Of a stretch of 64,000 nucleotides of DNA, positions 3,114 to 59,788 are shown one piece after another. The number at the start of each line of letters is the position of its first letter. Positions within the stretch are counted from its first letter, which is position 1. The DNA is from an uncultured Gammaproteobacteria bacterium (lineage in GTDB: Bacteria; Patescibacteriota; Microgenomatia; Daviesbacterales; UBA10151): assembly GCA_964392925.1 (NCBI GenBank), contig CAYMRP010000004.1, positions 71,184 through 135,183 on the forward strand, written 5' to 3'. Under the pieces are notes generated by a model. The model was given only the letters and a program-made list of their open reading frames with translations. It ran no database searches and was not told the DNA's origin. A program made the position numbers and the translations under genes.

Positions 3114-3180
3114 CAATTTAACCATTTAACAATTCAGCAATTTAACCATTTAACAATTCAGCAATTTAACAATTAATTTA
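3114..3180. repeat. Tandem 24-nt repeat (CAATTTAACCATTTAACAATTCAG, 2.7 copies) in an intergenic region
   Basis: Seen directly in the sequence immediately after the TAA stop at 3111-3113. Confidence 0.8.
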
Positions 3181-3202
3181 TGCTATATTGTTACTACCTG
3201 CT

Positions 3203-4423
3203 ATGAATTTTGATCTTGAAAATGATTTTCAAATTTTTGATGAACTCCTAAAAAAACGGCCCGAAATCTCGACTGATTCTTTCAAAAAAGATCTTCAAAA
3301 CTTTTTCCTCCCTTATGCCGAGAAGCTTCTAAAGCTTAAGGAATCAGCAGATAAAGCTATAGTTATCGGAGTCTCTGCCATTCAGGGTGCTGGCAAAACC
3401 ACGCAGGGTGAAATCCTAGAGATCCTCCTCCGGCATTTTAATAAAACATCAGTTAGTCTTTCGATTGACGATCATTACATTACTCATAAAGAGCTCTGTG
3501 AATTAAGACAACAGGATTCAAGGTTTATCAGGCGTGGAGTGACCCACGATATTGGTCTTGCGATAAGAAATATTAATGATTTAGTAGATTTTAAATCCCC
3601 AATAATCATTGCTCAATATGATAAAGGTGCACAAATGGGGGACGGAGATAGGTTTGCCTTTATAACACCTGTTGAAAATTTAACTCTTAAAGCCAAAGTT
3701 TTTGAAGAGGATCTGATTATTAATAAACTTCCTCAAACTGAAAAAGCTCTTAAGTTGTTGTCCTCTCAGTACGGCTCTGAAGATTTGAAATTGCCCGAAA
3801 ATATGGGTTCGGATATCCCAATAACTGAGGAATTTCTTCCTCAACCGCTTTGCGACTTTCTTTCCAGAATTGATAATCAGGTTGTTACAATTACCCGAGT
3901 CCAGGATAAGGTCTATTTTAGAGGTGGGGAAGATTTAGAAGTAAATATTAGTGATCTGCCAAAAGGCTGGAGACTAGTTCCTCAAAAACCCGATTTTATT
4001 TTCTATGACGGCTGGATGTTAGGTGCTAGAAAAGTTCAGGATGAGTCTGCATTTAGTCCTGAACTGCCTGCGCTGGAAGGCCCTAACTCTAGGGACTTCG
4101 CAATTTTTATTAATAATAAGCTCACTCATTACAATCCTTTATGGGACTTAATAGACTTTACCTGTGTTTTATATGTGCCTAATTATCAAATGTCTCTCAA
4201 ATGGAGAGATCAGGCAGAAGAATCCTTACGCACTCAGGGAAAAGGCATGACCCCGGATCAAATCCGTGAATTCGTTTACTATTTCTGGCGCTCAGTCCAT
4301 CCGGCCATTCAAATTAAAAATCTAGCCCAAGATCCCGAAACAGACCAGGTAATTATTATTAACGACGATCACACAATAAAAGAAGTATTGAAGCCGGAAG
4401 AAGTAGCAGTTAGGTATCAGTAA
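3203..4423 (+). CDS. P-loop kinase, D-glycerate 3-kinase (GLYK)/Tda10-like family
   Basis: Walker A embedded in GVSAIQGAGKTTQGEILEIL, like the G(I/V)SAPQGxGKTT motif of plant-type glycerate kinases. The track start at 3188 is TTG; the ATG at 3203 is more likely. Confidence 0.5.
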   Translation: MNFDLENDFQIFDELLKKRPEISTDSFKKDLQNFFLPYAEKLLKLKESADKAIVIGVSAIQGAGKTTQGEILEILLRHFNKTSVSLSIDDHYITHKELCELRQQDSRFIRRGVTHDIGLAIRNINDLVDFKSPIIIAQYDKGAQMGDGDRFAFITPVENLTLKAKVFEEDLIINKLPQTEKALKLLSSQYGSEDLKLPENMGSDIPITEEFLPQPLCDFLSRIDNQVVTITRVQDKVYFRGGEDLEVNISDLPKGWRLVPQKPDFIFYDGWMLGARKVQDESAFSPELPALEGPNSRDFAIFINNKLTHYNPLWDLIDFTCVLYVPNYQMSLKWRDQAEESLRTQGKGMTPDQIREFVYYFWRSVHPAIQIKNLAQDPETDQVIIINDDHTIKEVLKPEEVAVRYQ

Positions 4424-4533
4424 AATTTCTAATTTCTAAGTGCTCTAATTACTAAACAAATCCCAATACTCAAAATTGGGACTTTGGTTATTTCTTAGGT
4501 TAATTAGAAATTAGGTTAATTAGAAATTAAACC
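4424..4533. repeat. Copy 1 of a ~110-130 bp dispersed intergenic element (AATTTCTAATNTCTAAGTGCTCTAATT...TTAGAAATTAGGTTAATTAG)
   Basis: Near-identical 5' 30-mer and 3' TTAGGTTAATTAGAAA-type repeats are shared with 41434-41565. Both copies start immediately after a stop codon on the + strand. Confidence 0.7.
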
Positions 4534-5520
4534 ATGTACGATCTTATAACTATCGGAGACACAGTCATTGATACCTATCTGCCGATTGATGATGCCCAAG
4601 TTCTTGATAAAAAAGGCGTTAAATATCTTGGTTTAAAGTATGGTTATAAAATCCCCGTTTCTGACGGAGTTTCTGTGGTTGCCGGCAATGCCGCCAATAA
4701 CTCTATCGGAGCCTCCCGGCTGAAGCTAAAAACCGCAATCTATACTAATGTCGGGAATAAAGACGACGAGCAAAATGATGATCGTATCAAAGCTAAATTG
4801 AAGCAGGAAGGTGTGGATGTTCGCTATATAAAAGAAACTGACGATCTTCCTTCAAATCACAATATCGTCCTGACTTATAAAGGTGAGCGAACAATACTAG
4901 TCCATCACCAGCCATTCAAATTCGAGCTTCCAGACTTGGATAAATCTAAATGGGTTTATTTAACTTCAATGGCCCCAAATTATATTGAAACTCCCCTTGT
5001 AAATCAGCTTATCAATTACCTAGAGAGATCAAACGCTAAGCTTGCTTACCAGCCAGGCACTTTTCAGGTCAAACTGCGAGCAAAAAAACAGCACCGAATA
5101 TTATCTTTAGTTAATTTCTTGATTATGAACGCAGAAGAAGCAATTCATTTTCTGGAGCAGGAAGCCAATGAGCCCGTTCCAATTAAAAAACTTCTTAATA
5201 TGCTTTATCAATTAGGTCCTCGGTTAGTTGTTATCACTGATGGTAAAAAAGGCTCATTTGGTTTTGATGGAAAAAAGTATTTCTCGCTTGATGTCTTCCC
5301 TGCCAAGCTTGTCGAAATGACTGGTGCAGGGGATTCATTCGCAACCGGCACTCTGGCCGGCCTCTTTTACGGACATTCACTTGAAGAATCAATGCGCTGG
5401 GGCGGAGTTAATTCAGCCTCAGTCGTCGAACACATGGGATCAACCCCCGGATTATTAACACTAAACAAAATGGAAGAAAAACTAAAGGAACACAAAAAAA
5501 TTACTGCAAATGAATTATGA
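4534..5520 (+). CDS. PfkB-family carbohydrate/nucleoside kinase (ribokinase-like)
   Basis: PfkB C-terminal signature VEMTGAGDSFATG, an N-terminal GG-type motif, and about 328 aa. Confidence 0.8.
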   Translation: MYDLITIGDTVIDTYLPIDDAQVLDKKGVKYLGLKYGYKIPVSDGVSVVAGNAANNSIGASRLKLKTAIYTNVGNKDDEQNDDRIKAKLKQEGVDVRYIKETDDLPSNHNIVLTYKGERTILVHHQPFKFELPDLDKSKWVYLTSMAPNYIETPLVNQLINYLERSNAKLAYQPGTFQVKLRAKKQHRILSLVNFLIMNAEEAIHFLEQEANEPVPIKKLLNMLYQLGPRLVVITDGKKGSFGFDGKKYFSLDVFPAKLVEMTGAGDSFATGTLAGLFYGHSLEESMRWGGVNSASVVEHMGSTPGLLTLNKMEEKLKEHKKITANEL

Positions 5521-6217
5521 TGTTATTATGTCCATAAACCAAAAAGGCCTGACTGCAATATTTATTATTGTAAGCCTGCTGGTTTTTAGTAGTGCTATAG
5601 GCGGAGCCTATTTTTTTGGCACACAATCTAAAGCACCTGTCCCTTCCCCAAGCTTAGGCCCCTCATCAACGCCCTCTGTTGCACCAATTCTAAGTCCTCT
5701 TCCTTCCCAAACAGCAGCCACTCCGAGCCCAAGTGCTCAGGCTTCAGTTGTCACCACTCCTGTAACCGCTGTCAAAACCGAGCTAAAAATTACTTCAACT
5801 GTCCTTAATAACTCTCTCCCCTCAGGTTGGAAAACCATAAACAGCGCTAACAATAGCTTTCAGGTAGGCTATGATCCAAATCTGTATGAGGGAGAACAAA
5901 CAGCTTCATTTGCTGATAGTATTAACATTGAGAGAAGTAAAGAATGCTGTTTTAACTTTAACATTAATATAAAACCTTACAATGGTGGTTCAAGACATTC
6001 ATTCATAGGTAATTATGATAAAACTCCTCAGACTTATGAAAAAGATTATTACATAAAAGGTCGAAATGGCTTAGTGATATACAACATAATCTCCTCCTCA
6101 GCCTCAGCAATTGGCATGGTCAATATAGACGGTAAAAGAGCTTTTTATCTTACTTTCTATGGAAGCGACCAAGCATATATAGAGAAAGTATTGGCAAGCC
6201 TGAGAGTCCTACCCTAG
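5510..6217 (+). CDS. Hypothetical membrane-anchored protein with a Ser/Pro/Thr-rich linker
   Basis: N-terminal TM helix, a low-complexity PSPS linker and a C-terminal globular part; no recognisable motif. Confidence 0.45.
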   Translation: MNYDVIMSINQKGLTAIFIIVSLLVFSSAIGGAYFFGTQSKAPVPSPSLGPSSTPSVAPILSPLPSQTAATPSPSAQASVVTTPVTAVKTELKITSTVLNNSLPSGWKTINSANNSFQVGYDPNLYEGEQTASFADSINIERSKECCFNFNINIKPYNGGSRHSFIGNYDKTPQTYEKDYYIKGRNGLVIYNIISSSASAIGMVNIDGKRAFYLTFYGSDQAYIEKVLASLRVLP

Positions 6218-40926: not shown

Positions 40927-41433
40927 ATGACAGTGCATAATATTGGTGTCGGTAAAAAGTTTCCAAACGAAATATATGTAGTACTAGAGATCCCAAAAGG
41001 ATCTAGAAACAAATACGAATTCAACGAGGAATTCGGACTAATCGAACTAGACCGTGTTAACTACACAGCCATGGCTCATCCATACGACTATGGGTTTATA
41101 CCTGGAACCAGAAGCGAAGATGGCGATCATCTCGATGCTTTTGTTTTACTTGATCATTCCGCATTCCCTGGAGCACTCGTCTCCGCTCGTCCGGTAGGAG
41201 TTTTATTCATGGTTGATGACGGCGAAAAAGACGAAAAAATTATTGCAGTCCCTTCTAAAGATCCTAGATTTAATCATATTAAAGATCTTTCAGATCTATC
41301 TCCTCACATCAAAAAAGAAATCGAGCATTTCTTCCAGCATTACAAAGATCTTCAAAAAGTTACAGTTGAACTAAAAGGCTGGGGCGGAGCAGAAAAAGCT
41401 AAGGAAGTAATAGAGAAAAGTAGAGAAGAATAG
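40927..41433 (+). CDS. ppa: Inorganic pyrophosphatase (family I, soluble)
   Basis: Family I PPase motifs (DHLDAFVL, IAVP) and a 168-aa length. Confidence 0.9.
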   Translation: MTVHNIGVGKKFPNEIYVVLEIPKGSRNKYEFNEEFGLIELDRVNYTAMAHPYDYGFIPGTRSEDGDHLDAFVLLDHSAFPGALVSARPVGVLFMVDDGEKDEKIIAVPSKDPRFNHIKDLSDLSPHIKKEIEHFFQHYKDLQKVTVELKGWGGAEKAKEVIEKSREE

Positions 41434-41565
41434 AATTTCTAATATCTAAGTGCTCTAATTGACATAAGAAAATCCCAATATCCAAGTCCCAAATTTAAGT
41501 CATTCTAACCTTGGTGCTTGTTTAGATAAATTAGAAATTAGGTTAATTAGGTCAATTAATTCCAC
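41434..41565. repeat. Copy 2 of the dispersed intergenic element (see 4424-4533)
   Basis: AATTTCTAATATCTAAGTGCTCTAATTGAC...AAATCCCAATATCCAAG...TTAGAAATTAGGTTAATTAGGTCAATTAATT is highly similar to copy 1 and starts right after the ppa stop codon. Confidence 0.7.
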
Positions 41566-41628
41566 ATTCCCTCTTGACCTGTAACCTGTAGTTGTTGTAA
41601 TAATATCCCCACTGCCGCCAAGGTCTAT

Positions 41629-43632
41629 ATGGGTTTTGAATTAACACCACAAATTTTAAATTACTTTATTTGGTCCGGCTCAATCGCCGCCACAGCTTAT
41701 GGACTCATTCTTGCTTGGTTAATCTTAAAACTCCCCACAGGTAACGACAAAATGAGGGAAATCGCCTCAGCAATTCAGGAAGGTGCTACCGCATATTTAA
41801 CCCGACAATACATGGTTATCTCCCTGGTTGCGCTAGTAATAACTGTCCTGATCGGTCTCTTCATCTCCTTAAATAGTGCAATCGGCTTCGTTATCGGTGC
41901 TTTATTCTCAGCTGTTGCCGGTCTCGTCGGTATGGTTGTAGCCGTTAGAGCAAATATCCGATGCGCTGAAGCTGCAAAAAAAGGTTTAGCTCAGGCATTT
42001 GATGTCGCCTTTAAAGGCGGAGCAGTCACAGGTTTTATAGTTGTTGGCTTGGCTTTAGGCGTAACTTATGGCTTTTACCAATATTCTCTCGATATCCCAG
42101 CTTTAGTTTCTTTAGGTTTTGGAGCTTCTTTGATCTCAGTTTTTGCTAGACTCGGTGGGGGAATCTATACTAAAGGCGCAGACGTTGGTGGTGACATGGT
42201 TGGTAAAGTTGAGGCCGGAATTCCGGAAGATGATCCTCGAAATCCTGCTGTTATTGCTGATCTTGTAGGCGATAATGTTGGTGACGATGCTGGAATGGCT
42301 GCTGATATTTTCGAGACTTATGTTGTGACTGCAATTGCCGCAATTCTGCTCGGTGAATTCTTAATCCCTGGCTCTGAAACAGTTATTTATTATCCTCTGG
42401 CATTAATGTCAGGCGGTATTTTTGCTTCAATTATTGGTTCATTCTTTGCCCGTCTCACAGGTGGCCGGATTATGGGTACTTTATATCAGGGTCTTGGCGT
42501 AGCTGTTGTTTTATCTGCAGTTTCTTTTTACTTTATTACTGATGCTATGTGGGCAGGCAACGCAATCTTCTCCTCGACAAACTTATTCCTGGCCAGCCTT
42601 GTTGGTTTAGCAGTTTCAGCCGGCATGATGATAATTACGGAGTATTACACAGGGACAAAGTATAGTCCTGTTCGTTCAATAGCTCAGGCTTCAGCAACTG
42701 GCCATGGCACTAATGTTATTGCAGGCCTCGCAGTTTCTATGAAATCTACCTTTGCTCCAATCATCTTAATCTGCGCCGCTACTCTAATCTCTTTCTTCTT
42801 AGCTGATCTCTATGGAGTCGCTATCGCTGCAGTTGCCATGTTATCTCTGGCTGGAATAGTTGTGGCTATCGATGCCTTTGGTCCGATAACTGATAACGCC
42901 GGAGGAATCGCCGAAATGAGCGGTATGCCTGCTAAAATCCGTGCGAGTGTGACTGATCCTTTGGATGCCGTTGGCAACACCACCAAAGCAGTCACCAAAG
43001 GTTATGCTATTGCCTCAGCCGGCCTCGCAGCACTAGTTCTCTTTGCAGCCTACACACAAGAACTAGGTTCAGGAGTTATATTTGCCCTTAATGATCCTAA
43101 AGTCTTAGTTGGATTATTTATTGGTGGCGCATTGCCTTATGTATTTGCCTCCTTTGCTATGGAAGCAGTGGGTAAAGCTGGACAAGCTGTTGTTGAAGAA
43201 GTCCGCCGTCAATTCAAACTTTACAAAGGCATTATGAAAGGCACTCAAAAACCAGATTACGCTGCCTGTGTTTCAATAGTTACTGCAGCTGCTCAAAAAG
43301 AAATGATTATCCCAACTCTAATCCCTGTCTTAGCTCCAATCATAGTTGGTCTTTTCTTAGGTCCTATCGCCTTAGGCGGAATGCTCGTCGGTATAATTAT
43401 CACTGGTTTATTCGTTGGTTTATCTATGACAACTGGCGGAGCCGCTTGGGATAACGCTAAAAAATATATTGAGCAAGGTAACTTAGGCGGCAAAGGCTCC
43501 TTCGCTCATCAATCAGCAGTCACTGGCGACACAGTCGGCGATCCTTATAAGGATACTGCCGGACCAGCCATCAACCCAATGATTAAAGTTGCAAACATTG
43601 TTGCCCTACTTCTAGTCGCTCTTCTCAAATAA
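41629..43632 (+). CDS. hppA: Membrane-bound H+/Na+-translocating pyrophosphatase (V-type, HppA)
   Basis: 667 aa with about 16 TM helices and the signature [18 protein letters not shown]. Confidence 0.95.
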
Positions 43633-44860: not shown

Positions 44861-45502
44861 ATGAATGAGAGATTCATAGCCGATAAGCTTGCTGAATATC
44901 CCAAAGGCTGGAGTGCAAAAGTAAGACCTATTATTCCTTATGCAAATATTTCTTTAAGTAAAACTGCCTTACACGAAGCAAAGCATTTGGTATTACTGCA
45001 CGCAAATGGAACGGGTGCCAAAAGCGGGACAATTGAACCCGGACCCGGATATTTAGGAATGGTTGAGCCTCATGGCTTTGACGCTGTTGCCGCTTTAGGT
45101 CCAGATGCAGACGGAGATACCGGGACTGATCATGATAAAAGAGTTGCTGCATGGGGCGGCGCAGATATTGATTCATCTAGAAAAGTTGCCAGAACTATGC
45201 TTAATCGTTTAAGAGAAGAGGTCAGATTAGTAGCAGGGCTTCTAGAAGTAGAAAGAACTGTCTCCGGGGGCAGGGTATCAGAAGTTATAAATAAATATCA
45301 GCAAGATCCTGACGAAGAAGTAGAGGTGGTCGATCCAATTGGTAACATAACAACAACTAAGACACCCCGAAGTAAAAGACACGAAATACTTTTCGGGGTA
45401 AATGAAAAGAATAAACACTTAGAAAATAAAGATATAAAAAAAGTCAGGAATTTCAGACCTTTGAATAATAAGTTAAAAATTTCTACTAAAATAGCAGCTT
45501 GA
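44861..45502 (+). CDS. Stand-alone FtsH-type (M41) zinc-peptidase domain protein lacking AAA+ and TM regions
   Basis: TALHEAKHLVL (HExxH) resembles FtsH TAYHEAGHALV; GTIEPGPGYLGMVEP resembles TIIPRGRALGYT; GGADIDSSRKVARTML resembles TGASNDIERATEIARNMV. The ORF is 213 aa and GC-richer than its neighbours. Confidence 0.5.
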   Translation: MNERFIADKLAEYPKGWSAKVRPIIPYANISLSKTALHEAKHLVLLHANGTGAKSGTIEPGPGYLGMVEPHGFDAVAALGPDADGDTGTDHDKRVAAWGGADIDSSRKVARTMLNRLREEVRLVAGLLEVERTVSGGRVSEVINKYQQDPDEEVEVVDPIGNITTTKTPRSKRHEILFGVNEKNKHLENKDIKKVRNFRPLNNKLKISTKIAA

Positions 45503-45680
45503 CCTATAGTAGAGTATTGCAAAAAATAAAATTTATGATAGTATATTCATACAACTAAATATCAAAAGCGTTTGTACTTGTAGTCGCGCACAAGGAGCTG
45601 GTTCTCAAAATAGAACACGGAGACGAAACCGTAAAAGACAGTAACATGTGTCGGTAACGGAGCATGTCAGGAATAAGTAA

Positions 45681-45703
45681 TTCTTTGACATCTCGCGAAA
45701 GCG
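45681..45703 (+). terminator. Intrinsic-terminator-like hairpin (TCTCGC-GAAA-GCGGGA followed by T7)
   Basis: A 6-bp stem with a GAAA tetraloop followed by TTTTTTT, located inside a 320-bp noncoding region. Confidence 0.45.
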
Positions 45704-45747
45704 GGATTTTTTTGAATTAGTACAAGGTGGCACCGCCAATTTAAAGG

Positions 45748-45797
45748 CCCTTGTGATTTTCTTAACTAAAGTTAGGGAATTCACAAGGGCTTTTTTA
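45748..45797 (+). terminator. Rho-independent terminator (10-bp stem GCCCTTGTGA/TCACAAGGGC followed by T6)
   Basis: A perfect 10-bp inverted repeat at 45748-45757 and 45781-45790, followed by TTTTTT. Confidence 0.6.
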
Positions 45798-45822
45798 ATG
45801 CCCTAAAAAAGGAAAAAAATAT

Positions 45823-46413
45823 ATGAGATCAATATATAAGGAAAAGCTAAGTAATCCAATATCGGAACACATTCCTGGGAAAATTATTATGGGCGGAGAA
45901 ATTGACATCCTCTCTTTAGGGGTGAGGCAGGGGTATGCAAGTTATATTAGTGAGGAGCTAGGTAAGCATCAAGATAAAACTAAACTAAGAAGTTCCATAG
46001 AATTAGAAAGGGATATGCGAGAAGCCAGAGCGATTCTTTGTCTTCACCCCGAGACTGAGCAATTATTAGCATTCGCCAAGCTCGAATATTTTGGAATAAA
46101 TGATGCAAAACAAATTATATATGAGTTTGGTTCTTGGATTGGTAAGAATGGCTATGGAAGAGATGTCTTAGAGGCTGGAAGAGATTTAGCCGCCCAGCAA
46201 TTTCCGTATGCCAGACTGATAGCAATTGTCAGACCCAGCAACCTAAAAGCGCAAAGAATAATTACTGAGAGTGGGGGAATAAAAGTGGGTTATCTTGATC
46301 CTCTCGTGAAACATATTTACGACATAACCAGAAGACAACAACCAACAAGTGTAATCAAGCTAGGTCAGGGTGGAATTTGGATTAATCAACAAAATCAAGG
46401 TCATATTCTATAA
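45823..46413 (+). CDS. Hypothetical protein (possible acyl-CoA N-acyltransferase-like fold; weak)
   Basis: 196 aa with a good SD-like AAGGAAAAA upstream. A weak GNAT-like segment (ARLIAIVRPSNLKAQRIITESGGIKVG) does not support a confident family call. Confidence 0.3.
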   Translation: MRSIYKEKLSNPISEHIPGKIIMGGEIDILSLGVRQGYASYISEELGKHQDKTKLRSSIELERDMREARAILCLHPETEQLLAFAKLEYFGINDAKQIIYEFGSWIGKNGYGRDVLEAGRDLAAQQFPYARLIAIVRPSNLKAQRIITESGGIKVGYLDPLVKHIYDITRRQQPTSVIKLGQGGIWINQQNQGHIL

Positions 46414-46424
46414 GGAAAAAAGTT

Positions 46425-47150
46425 ATGAAAAAATCTACAGCAATAAAATACAAGACAATAGGTGTTTTAGGAGGCATGGGCCCCTCTGCCTCAGCATACT
46501 TTTATCAGCTTTTATTGAAAACTCTACAGCAAAAGCATAATGCTGTGCAGGATTATGACTATCCTCAAATAATCATTAATTCATTATCTCTATCGGATTC
46601 CAGCGAGAATGGAATGGAAAGTTCGACTAGAATTATTAATCAGTTAACCAAAGGGATTAATGCATTGGAAAAGGCGGGTGCTAATTTTATTACAATTCCT
46701 TGCAATTCAGTTCATAATTCAATTAAGGTACTGAGGAAGAAAACAAAGTTACCAATAATCAGTATTATTGAGAAAGTAAGCTTGGAGGTTATTAAGGATA
46801 AATCTAAGAAAATTCTTATTCTCTCCTCAAAAACAACTAATAATTACGGTCTTTATGATAGTTTGAAAAATGAGGGAATAATTATAATAAAACCTAACAG
46901 TATTCTTGAGGAGCAAGTCACTAGGTTAATACTTGCTGTAATGGGAAATAAGAATATTCAGAACGTAAAAAAACCTGTTATCAAAACAATTAACAGCATG
47001 TTTAACAGTGGTGATATTGATTCAGTACTTCTAGGTTGTACCGAGTTACCATTAGCAATAACTAAGGGCGATGTAGATTGTAAGATTTATGATTCATTAA
47101 GAATATTATCGGAGGCTTCTGTAAACTACTCACTAATCTCGGCGAAATAA
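46425..47150 (+). CDS. Aspartate/glutamate/hydantoin racemase-family protein (Asp racemase-like)
   Basis: N-terminal IGVLGGMGPSAS motif and a second half-site with Cys (LLGCTELP), typical of Asp/Glu racemase superfamily two-Cys enzymes. Confidence 0.75.
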   Translation: MKKSTAIKYKTIGVLGGMGPSASAYFYQLLLKTLQQKHNAVQDYDYPQIIINSLSLSDSSENGMESSTRIINQLTKGINALEKAGANFITIPCNSVHNSIKVLRKKTKLPIISIIEKVSLEVIKDKSKKILILSSKTTNNYGLYDSLKNEGIIIIKPNSILEEQVTRLILAVMGNKNIQNVKKPVIKTINSMFNSGDIDSVLLGCTELPLAITKGDVDCKIYDSLRILSEASVNYSLISAK

Positions 47151-47256
47151 TTATTGTTTTAATTTTTACACAGTTTAAGCTATAATAGGCACTATAAACG
47201 AAGACTTCATTAAAAACACATTATCTTTAAGAGGCAAGGTTAAGGGTCAAAAATGG

Positions 47257-48630: not shown

Positions 48631-48724
48631 AAGAAGGTTAATTTTACCAGACTTCAGCCTTCCATGCCAATTGATATGCAAAGTCGATACTTGCCAGGAA
48701 TATTGAAAGTGCTAAACTGATGGA

Positions 48725-48994
48725 ATGTTAACGAAACAAGATATACGACAAATAGGGGAAGTAATAGAAGTTAAATTAATGCCAATCGATGAAAAAGTAA
48801 CTGGACTTGATGAAAAAGTAACTGGACTTGATGAAAAAGTAACGAAGCTCGAGAAATCTCAAAAAGCATTGAAGAAAACACTTAATAGAGTTGCAAGAGA
48901 GCAACAAGCGATTCTAGGCTTCCTGAACAAAGAAGATGTGGAGACTCGCAAGCGGGTTGATAGAATAGAAGATTATCTGGGACTTTCTTCTTAA
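48725..48994 (+). CDS. Hypothetical small coiled-coil protein with a tandem EKVTGLD heptad repeat
   Basis: A 21-nt unit (GATGAAAAAGTAACTGGACTT) is repeated about 2.5 times in the coding sequence; the protein is charged and alpha-helical in character. Confidence 0.4.
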   Translation: MLTKQDIRQIGEVIEVKLMPIDEKVTGLDEKVTGLDEKVTKLEKSQKALKKTLNRVAREQQAILGFLNKEDVETRKRVDRIEDYLGLSS

Positions 48995-49036
48995 TAACTT
49001 CCAATATAGCCTCAAAAAATATATACTTAAGCCTCT

Positions 49037-59727: not shown

Positions 59728-59752
59728 GTTTCGAACGCAGTGAGAAAAACAT
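59728..59752. repeat. Copy B of the 25-nt dispersed motif (GTTTCGAACGCAGTGAGAAAAACAT)
   Basis: Matches copies at 2245 and 59764; in tandem with copy C (36-nt offset) upstream of gene 59868. Confidence 0.6.
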
Positions 59753-59763
59753 GCTCTTCATAT

Positions 59764-59788
59764 TTTTCGAGCATAGCGAGAAAATACT
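59764..59788. repeat. Copy C of the 25-nt dispersed motif (TTTTCGAGCATAGCGAGAAAATACT)
   Basis: See copies A and B. Confidence 0.6.

Follow-up and report, generated by a model that had tools for sequence, protein, structure and literature searches.

The two repeat copies and their inverted ends

The stretch of DNA analysed here (the window, 64,000 nucleotides (nt) of contig CAYMRP010000004.1 in assembly GCA_964392925.1) carries a short repeat in two intergenic spacers. Copy 1, at 4424, lies between the stop codon of a gene for a 411-amino-acid (aa) protein (3188-4423) and the ATG of a PfkB-family kinase gene (4534), and copy 2, at 41434, lies between the genes of a soluble inorganic pyrophosphatase (40927-41433) and an H+-pyrophosphatase (41629-43632). 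Both positions had been proposed in a first-pass annotation, made from the sequence alone, and were confirmed by motif matching. The 27-mer AATTTCTAATTTCTAAGTGCTCTAATT is present at 4424-4450 without mismatch and at 41434-41460 with one; no third site exists in the window at up to three mismatches, and 100 shuffles gave no match. A second block, TTAGAAATTAGGTTAATTAG, is exact at 4504-4523 and 41531-41550, with 0.06 such matches expected by chance. The core AAATCCCAATAYYCAA, found at 4458-4473 and 41470-41485, is weak evidence on its own and not significant, as two or more hits were obtained in 7 of 100 shuffles. Identity between the copies amounts to 73% across the entire spacer, the ends being conserved and the centre divergent.

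Each copy begins right after a stop codon, as had been annotated (TAA 4421-4423 for copy 1, TAG 41431-41433 for copy 2), and the inverted repeat TCCCAAT/ATTGGGA reported for copy 1 was located at 4461-4467 and 4475-4481. The description of the repeat as ending just before the next plus-strand gene applies to copy 1, which stops 5 nt before the ATG at 4534, but not to copy 2, which ends at about 41557, approximately 70 nt before the ATG at 41629. What escaped the first-pass annotation is that, in each copy, one end is repeated in inverted orientation at the other; the ends of copy 1 form the strongest local inverted repeat of the whole window. Structure prediction at the RNA level, one of the checks proposed in that annotation, gave a single long imperfect hairpin for each copy, with -25.7 kcal/mol (z = -4.3) for copy 1 and -21.4 kcal/mol (z = -2.1) for copy 2. 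The parts of these elements, neither of which holds an open reading frame (ORF), are the following.

4424-4528, no strand assigned: copy 1, whole ORF-less element of 105 nt, filling the spacer between two genes
4424-4456, plus strand: "GTGCTC arm" of copy 1, AATTTCTAATTTCTAAGTGCTCTAATTACTAAA, with four CTAA(T) motifs 7-9 nt apart
4458-4481, plus strand: inner stem and core of copy 1, AAATCCCAAT..ATTGGGA, with a stem of 7 base pairs (bp) formed by 4461-4467 and 4475-4481
4495-4528, plus strand: "ATTAG arm" of copy 1, TTAGGTTAATTAGAAATTAGGTTAATTAGAAATT, with a 16-nt internal direct repeat; pairs with 4424-4456
41434-41557, no strand assigned: copy 2, whole ORF-less element of about 124 nt, oriented as copy 1
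41434-41468, plus strand: GTGCTC arm of copy 2, AATTTCTAATATCTAAGTGCTCTAATTGACATAAG
41470-41485, plus strand: core of copy 2, AAATCCCAATATCCAA; no matching ATTGGGATTT partner is left, so the centre is degenerate
41521-41557, plus strand: ATTAG arm of copy 2, TTTAGATAAATTAGAAATTAGGTTAATTAGGTCAATT; pairs with 41434-41450
41574-41604, plus strand: TTGACC-(18)-TAATAAT, noticed by eye, outside the element and 3' of copy 2

The last of these could be the H+-pyrophosphatase gene's own promoter; it falls below the criteria of the promoter scan. A search with arm profiles (nhmmer) revealed no further diverged copies in the window.

A full-length cassette with a four-helix-bundle gene

In a profile search of fetched loci, arms of this kind were found 460-540 nt apart in L015, L022 and L041, where they enclose an ORF of 120 aa. 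It matches Pfam PF05635 ("23S rRNA-intervening sequence protein", E = 2e-10) and TIGR02436 ("four helix bundle protein", E = 2e-16), and the solved structure closest to it is PDB 2rld (E = 7.5e-10), whose entry holds five chains. A homologue search yielded 7961 sequences at E <= 1e-10; the 120 that match best are 73-99% identical, and the named ones among them belong to Levy-, Davies- and Curtissbacteria. Six more loci were then fetched via the protein alone, a selection unbiased as to the DNA arms, and all six showed the same arm-ORF-core-arm layout, which makes nine full-length loci in all.

The full-length cassette measures about 450-550 nt and its arms pair across about 400 nt. Behind the stop codon of the upstream gene it reads AATTRAC(CTAATTnn)x3-4 CTAAAnA and enters the ORF with ATG ACY AAT; the ORF stop is followed by ATTGGGATTT in most loci and by (ATTAGnn)x3-4. 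The left arm thus holds three or four CTAATT motifs, spaced 7-9 nt, and the right arm three or four AATTAG motifs. The post-ORF arm ends in ATTAGAAATT in 7 of the 9 loci, and the next gene's ATG follows after only 2-8 nt. In the minimum free energy folds of all nine long forms, 14-38 nt of the pre-ORF arm pair with the post-ORF region, so that the ORF is closed in a loop. Two of these loci, L045 and L055, carry a second CTAATT array 3' of the ORF.

The surroundings of the long forms are mutually unrelated (the atp operon, T4SS-pilin genes, M48 peptidase|obg, X|tatC, def|fmt and hisS|EamA), and the ORF runs in the direction of its neighbours in at least 7 of the 8 loci for which both neighbours are known. 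Strong purifying selection acts on the ORFs: pairwise dN is 0.08-0.20, and dN/dS does not exceed 0.05 where dS could be estimated, the other pairs being saturated. No transposase gene was found between or beside the arms in about 35 loci, and the four-helix-bundle ORF is the only one encoded by the nine long forms.

The short elements of the window correspond to this cassette part by part. Read on the opposite strand, the GTGCTC arm AATTTCTAATTTCTAAGTGCTCTAATTACTAAA is the right, post-ORF arm ATTAGAGCACTTAGAAATTAGAAATT found in L015, L022 and L041, a GAGCAC variant which is equally the reverse complement of the 27-mer described above; the core of copy 1 has its counterpart in the ATTGGGATTT core located 3' of the ORF, and the ATTAG arm TTAGGTTAATTAGAAATTAGGTTAATTAGAAATT, reverse-complemented, gives the left, pre-ORF CTAATT array. 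When the GAGCAC of the ORF-bearing relatives is used as a marker, the sense of the family is the minus strand of the window at copy 1, which is therefore inverted relative to its plus-strand neighbours. The GAGCAC variant is present in the three long forms just named, partial in L067 and absent from the other five, and the family must therefore be wider than that motif. We assign the window copies to the four-helix-bundle cassette family with good confidence. A possible remnant of the ORF start was also noticed in copy 1, whose reverse complement (CCTAAGAAATAACCAAAGTCCCAATT) is similar to the left arm and ORF start of L045 (CCTAAACAATGACCAATAACCCAATT); it was not relied on, because the arms mirror each other and the same motif occurs also in right arms (L069).

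ORF-less elements in other Microgenomates

The search for further copies, likewise proposed in the first-pass annotation, revealed the same modules at about 25 other distinct intergenic sites in assemblies of Microgenomates, which belong to the candidate phyla radiation (CPR). A scan of species-representative genomes with the 25-mer TTTCTAATNTCTAAGTGCTCTAATT gave six loci, all in metagenome-assembled genomes (MAGs) of Patescibacteria/Microgenomates, namely Curtiss-, Roizman- and Levybacteria and two MAGs labelled Gammaproteobacteria; the latter label is suspected to be wrong, because all other 25-mer hits come from Patescibacteria. Scanning with a 21-mer gave 37 loci in metagenomes and no hit among viral sequences. 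With duplicates and matches lacking the other arm removed, the scans yielded about 24 different elements that are complete and 65-180 nt long; the 21-mer matches set aside for want of the second arm (L010, L020, L025, L040 and L044) look like chance or coding matches.

These elements share a common plan. Written in the orientation of the first-pass annotation, the 5' side is an arm of four CTAA(T) motifs, one of them interrupted by GTGCTC; the middle often has a CAAATCCCAAT core, a variable centre and, again often, ATTGGGATTTG; and the 3' side is an arm of three or four AATTAG motifs with the terminus AATTAGAAATT. The arm motifs are spaced by 7 or 9 nt, and the centre is highly variable across the family in both sequence and length. 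All 14 further elements tested fold as a single long hairpin (z = -2.1 to -5.9). Near-identical 27-mers recur in different lineages of Microgenomates, in which neutral sites are saturated, and this recurrence suggests spread or sequence-specific recognition and not a generic requirement for a hairpin.

On the side of the nearest gene, the distance to the flanking ORF is 0-13 nt and the elements nearly fill their spacers, a tight fit due to the very short operon spacers that they occupy. At 12 loci both neighbours are on the opposite strand, at 6 (including both window copies) both are on the same strand, and at 4 the element lies between convergent genes. In the 12 opposite-strand loci, the "AATTTC..." end abuts a start codon and not a stop. 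Strict positioning after stop codons, which had been taken as an argument for a transcribed functional unit, is thus not general, since the same end meets a start codon in 12 of about 22 loci. The neighbours are functionally unrelated from locus to locus. Stop codons in all six frames are found in 28 of 48 arms (3.1 expected), and in several loci, def among them, the element itself provides the stop codon of the upstream gene.

Three additional observations concern incomplete relatives of the elements. A GTGCTC arm with no second arm was found at L014:1-560 (minus strand) and in L034; behind it come a G+C-rich repeat (GAGCTTCGAGC...) and a sequence which by eye is tRNA-like. L002 has, besides its main element, a diverged arm-like copy at 4247-4293, 1.35 kb away. 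At L003:1187-1363 (and in L023) there is a truncated fragment of the four-helix-bundle gene (aa 10-68, 58% identity), 2.4 kb from the ORF-less element of the same contig; with AT-rich flanks that retain mere traces of arms, it is probably a decayed full-length cassette.

The two strands of the elements fold equally well: each strand is the more stable in 12 of 24 cases, and the means are -26.3 and -25.2 kcal/mol. This finding bears on two of the explanations offered in the first-pass annotation, a small RNA gene family and a terminator-promoter module. Neither is supported: no sigma-70-like promoter was found in either copy, and the elements stand in both orientations relative to their neighbours. 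The terminator scan gave no hit in copy 2 and, in copy 1, only the 7-bp inner stem, and the arms are AT-rich without a consistent T tail. When the copies were compared with the Rfam covariance models, nothing reached the gathering threshold; at E <= 1 only weak hits of the hairpin type, to miRNA precursors, appeared (E = 0.6-0.8), and the only Rfam hit in the window is a tRNA. While the stable and recurrent fold and those weak hits could speak for an independently transcribed small RNA family, the variable centre and the lack of strand preference are added to the results just listed, and we consider such a family extremely unlikely.

Equal folding of both strands is also what symmetry at the DNA level would predict, and the arms might be arrays of protein-binding sites, with CTAAT/ATTAG motifs at a spacing of 7-9 nt (3-5 per arm) and with the hairpin potential as a by-product. 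The motifs are conserved and the sequence that separates them varies, the 27-mer does not change from lineage to lineage, and a possible binder is at hand in the four-helix-bundle protein as a pentamer: 2rld has five chains, and Xcc0516 was reported to be a pentamer (PMC4990558). However, a plain inverted repeat in RNA gives equal stability of the two strands as well, and the ORF-less copies persist in a window devoid of the four-helix-bundle gene. We regard such binding arrays as quite unlikely.

Several other readings of the arms were tried and dropped. The string TTGATT..TAGAAAT, noticed by eye as a candidate promoter of a leaderless mRNA, has poor hexamers and spacing. For a strand-specific RNA stabilized by G.U pairs there is no evidence, given the equal folding of the two strands. 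The sequence CTAAGTGCTCTAA resembles one half-site of the CIRCE operator of HrcA, but no second half-site is present at the 9-nt spacing. As to a phage vector, besides the lack of viral hits with the 21-mer, the general left-arm pattern gave five, all of them plain tandem octamer repeats without an inverted arm or a four-helix-bundle gene.

Occupied and unoccupied junctions

Comparison of related loci indicates that the elements can be present or absent at a given junction. L069 and L081 are syntenic over Wzy/TPR - def - fmt - x - L28 - M50. Between def and fmt, with the def stop and the fmt start both intact, L069 has a cassette of 448 nt; in L081 the two genes are 8 nt apart (TAA TGTTAACA ATG), with no cassette. 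Copy 2 is absent from L007, which is 90-94% identical to the window on both sides, the similarity breaking exactly at the pyrophosphatase stop codon and resuming at the H+-pyrophosphatase ATG (from 41627 on). At that position (L007:1487-2368 against window 41434-41628), the whole ppa-hppA spacer is replaced by a minus-strand gene for a 221-aa protein with no Pfam hit. Further block differences between these two sequences were noted, window segments 44864-47174 and 48659-48998 being absent from L007.

L073, on the 542-kb contig ERZ965181 k127_151207, is 90.7% identical to the window over 4 kb (98% for the PfkB protein), and copy 1 is conserved in it with 0 mismatches in 110 positions; the adjacent coding flanks of 124 and 166 nt differ by 6.5% and 4.8%, and at these rates the probability of finding no mismatch is about 0.002. 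In two relatives with 82-83% PfkB identity, L075 and L079, the same spacer is occupied by other long hairpins of similar length (z = -3.9 and -3.1). The hairpin at L075:2890-3000 is built of TTCAAATT/AATTTGAA, and that at L079:2867-3000 of (CCAAT)x5 on one side and (ATTGG)x4 on the other. These cases suggest that motif-array hairpins form a wider class, or that this spacer acquires such hairpins time and again. Downstream, window 5510-6217 is a 235-aa ORF with no Pfam hit, which is absent from L073 and replaced in L075 by an opposite-strand gene with a Clp_N domain; because its content differs in both relatives, it is a variable spot.

The elements could also be a structural module that serves the host, i.e. 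long AT-rich spacer hairpins used for mRNA processing, 3'-end formation or translational coupling, with the four-helix-bundle gene as an occasional passenger; through the hairpin, the stop codon of the upstream gene and the start codon of the downstream gene would meet at the foot of a single stem. In favour of this possibility are the perfect conservation of copy 1 against 5-9% difference in flanking coding DNA, the hairpins of similar length and unrelated sequence kept in the same spacer by the relatives at 82-83% PfkB identity, and the fact that the elements fill the spacer on at least one side, the arms of full-length forms ending 2-8 nt from the next ATG. Nevertheless, the neighbours are functionally unrelated and both orientations occur, L007 manages without copy 2 and L081 without a cassette between def and fmt, and the near-identical 27-mers across lineages with saturated neutral sites speak more for spread or sequence-specific recognition than for a need for structure only. 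We therefore find a host-serving module unlikely.

The suggestion that the repeat is a miniature mobile element fared better in part. Dispersal over unrelated loci and lineages and presence or absence between close relatives agree with it; the partner element, however, encodes a PF05635 protein and no transposase, and no target-site duplication could be recognized. In the classical form of this idea, a miniature inverted-repeat transposable element, the arms would be terminal inverted repeats for a transposase encoded elsewhere (DDE or other) and the four-helix-bundle gene would be cargo. Terminal inverted repeats, sub-terminal repeated motifs, a length of 65-180 nt and dispersed intergenic distribution in either orientation, with presence or absence between relatives, are all found. 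A full-length partner encoding a transposase is not, the only recurrent internal gene being the four-helix-bundle ORF (9 of 9 long forms); furthermore, no target-site duplication is discernible, exact-motif copies number one or two per genome, and the window copies, at 73%, are not near-identical. A classical element of this type is, accordingly, very unlikely.

The Correia/NEMIS, RUP, ERIC and REP/BIME families are also short intergenic inverted repeats which are co-transcribed as hairpins and occur in either orientation, and Correia elements are substrates of RNase III. These families have transposase or RAYT partners, or else high copy numbers and defined target duplications. In the elements described here, by contrast, the partner gene encodes a four-helix-bundle protein, the copy number is apparently low and no duplication was seen.

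Relation to intervening sequences of ribosomal RNA

Intervening sequences (IVSs) of ribosomal RNA (rRNA) have been known since about 1990. The Coxiella IVS, 428 nt in length, is closed by a terminal stem of 28 bp and contains an S23p ORF, likewise of PF05635, with heptamer direct repeats 5' of it; it is excised by RNase III, and its ORF was reported to be decaying (PMC4990558). ORFs of the 23S_rRNA_IVP type have been found in rRNA insertions of CPR bacteria (PMC11270868). The ORF-bearing 23S IVSs of Coxiella and Leptospira and the present cassettes are alike in size (about 430-550 nt), in the terminal stem of 20-30 bp and in the loop with a PF05635 ORF of about 120 aa; both have direct repeats upstream (GACAGAT heptamers in the Coxiella IVS, CTAATT at 7-9 nt in the cassettes), and both are suspected selfish elements. 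They differ in that the 23S IVSs are located in helix 25 or 45, whereas the cassettes lie between protein-coding genes of ordinary operons, and in that the decaying ORF of Coxiella contrasts with an ORF under strong purifying selection (dN/dS <= 0.05). The short forms are matched by the ORF-less 23S IVSs of Salmonella, Yersinia and Campylobacter and by short rRNA insertions of CPR bacteria, which are hairpins of about 100-150 nt that coexist with ORF-bearing forms (PMC11270868, PMC4990558); those lie in rRNA and the present ones in mRNA spacers, and the likeness is one of architecture.

The defining location of an IVS is an rRNA gene. In the window and at all related loci examined, the elements have protein-coding ORFs on either side, and for this reason we do not file the elements as IVSs. 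Complementary termini that enclose the element were found, in predicted folds, in the window copies, in 14 other short forms and in all nine long forms; the S23p/PF05635/TIGR02436 ORF lies in the loop of the long forms, and the window copies are without it. Since no member was seen in rRNA, the link to IVSs is drawn from the ORF family and the architecture. The element is an IVS-like cassette outside rRNA, of which the window holds two degenerate, gene-less copies. As far as sequence tells, it would work like an IVS in a different host context.

Genes of the 23S_rRNA_IVP family have also been noted between cas genes, e.g. cmr3|cmr2 (Zhang, Doak and Ye 2014, PMC3936711). Like the cassettes in def|fmt and in the atp operon, they are wedged between adjacent operon genes. 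The association with cas was read there as functional, and the accessible part describes neither flanking arms nor ORF-less derivatives (PMC3936711). A full-text search covering part of the literature turned up no account of the arms or of derivatives without the ORF, and none of such elements in operons of CPR bacteria.

Interpretation

We propose that an IVS-like hairpin cassette populates intergenic spacers of Microgenomates and that the two repeats of the window are copies of it with an internal deletion and no ORF, and we hold this, on balance, to be probable. Several points weigh against it. The scan of species-representative genomes gave one exact-motif hit per genome, also on the 835-kb contig CAYRKM010000001.1, and the window has two copies in 64 kb. 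A four-helix-bundle gene was not found in the window (tblastn), and in their centres the window copies are strongly divergent from each other. Among the loci examined, none of the members lies within an rRNA gene, the rRNA genes of these genomes not having been scanned. No empty site at nucleotide resolution was found among the loci compared: the proteins of L081 and L069 are only 54-67% identical, and in L007 the entire spacer is replaced, hence there is no clean empty site there either. The element ends show no consistent direct repeat, i.e. no target-site duplication, the flanks being AT-rich and a nucleotide-level empty site for comparison being unavailable. Synonymous sites are saturated between ORFs of different loci, so that the sampled insertions must be old, which, together with the low apparent copy number, argues against recent bursts. 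The different hairpins in the spacer of copy 1 fit a need of the host for a hairpin as well as they fit a hot spot of insertion.

The cassette would be co-transcribed with the host operon, and the arm stem, an imperfect double-stranded RNA of 20-45 bp, might be cut by RNase III by analogy to rRNA IVSs; alternatively, the stem could act as a 3'-end or processing hairpin. Processing by RNase III as the molecular role is a tentative suggestion, to which we would give somewhat less than an even chance. The CTAA/TTAG arrays would supply stop codons in every frame of both strands and thus permit insertion without fusion of reading frames. ORF-less copies may arise by deletion of the loop, e.g. between the CTAATT arrays that flank the ORF in L045 and L055, where the second array provides direct repeats on either side of the ORF and makes such an event possible. 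The window copies, inverted relative to their neighbours and gene-less, would act only as intercistronic or 3'-untranslated-region hairpins.

The idea that the IVS ORF serves mobility was put forward by Ralph and McClelland in 1993 (quoted in PMC4990558). One may go further and imagine that PF05635/TIGR02436 proteins are the maintenance or mobility factor of hairpin cassettes in general, the IVSs being only the subset that landed in rRNA. The pentamer would then recognize its own CTAAT/ATTAG motifs (3-5 per arm), the cassette would invade junctions of a few nt between translationally coupled genes, supplying all-frame stops and an A/U-rich leader, and the ORF-less hairpins would be non-autonomous and acted on in trans. 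We consider this generalization improbable.

The PF05635-type ORFs constitute one of the large uncharacterized bacterial families, with the 7961 relatives counted above for this subfamily alone, and the Microgenomates offer dozens of independent insertions of one fixed architecture in protein-coding operons. As filled and empty junctions (def|fmt) can be compared and ORF-bearing and ORF-less forms coexist, three questions become testable: whether the protein binds its own arms, whether the stem is an RNase III site in mRNA, and how an 8-nt junction can be entered without breaking the operon. For annotation it matters that a four-helix-bundle gene found within a cas, atp or def-fmt operon was probably inserted there and is probably no functional partner of that operon.

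Other repeats and features of the window

Some features of the window are distinct from the elements described above. The 320-nt spacer 45503-45822 has a strong, G+C-rich, terminator-like hairpin at 45743-45794, followed by T's; nothing in Rfam matches it, and an RNA not yet annotated could be located there. An 89-aa ORF (48725-48994), in a block missing from L007, contains three in-frame tandem repeats of 21 nt each (48773-48843). Another AT-rich spacer built of repeats (3114-3187) precedes the gene for the 411-aa protein, one gene upstream of copy 1; it consists of about 2.6 copies of the 24-nt tandem repeat CAATTTAACCATTTAACAATTCAG and is predicted to be unstructured. A second dispersed intergenic repeat, TTTCGARCATAGYGAGAAAAT, occurs at 2246-2267 and 59765-59786, where none is expected by chance, and a similar stretch is found near 59729.

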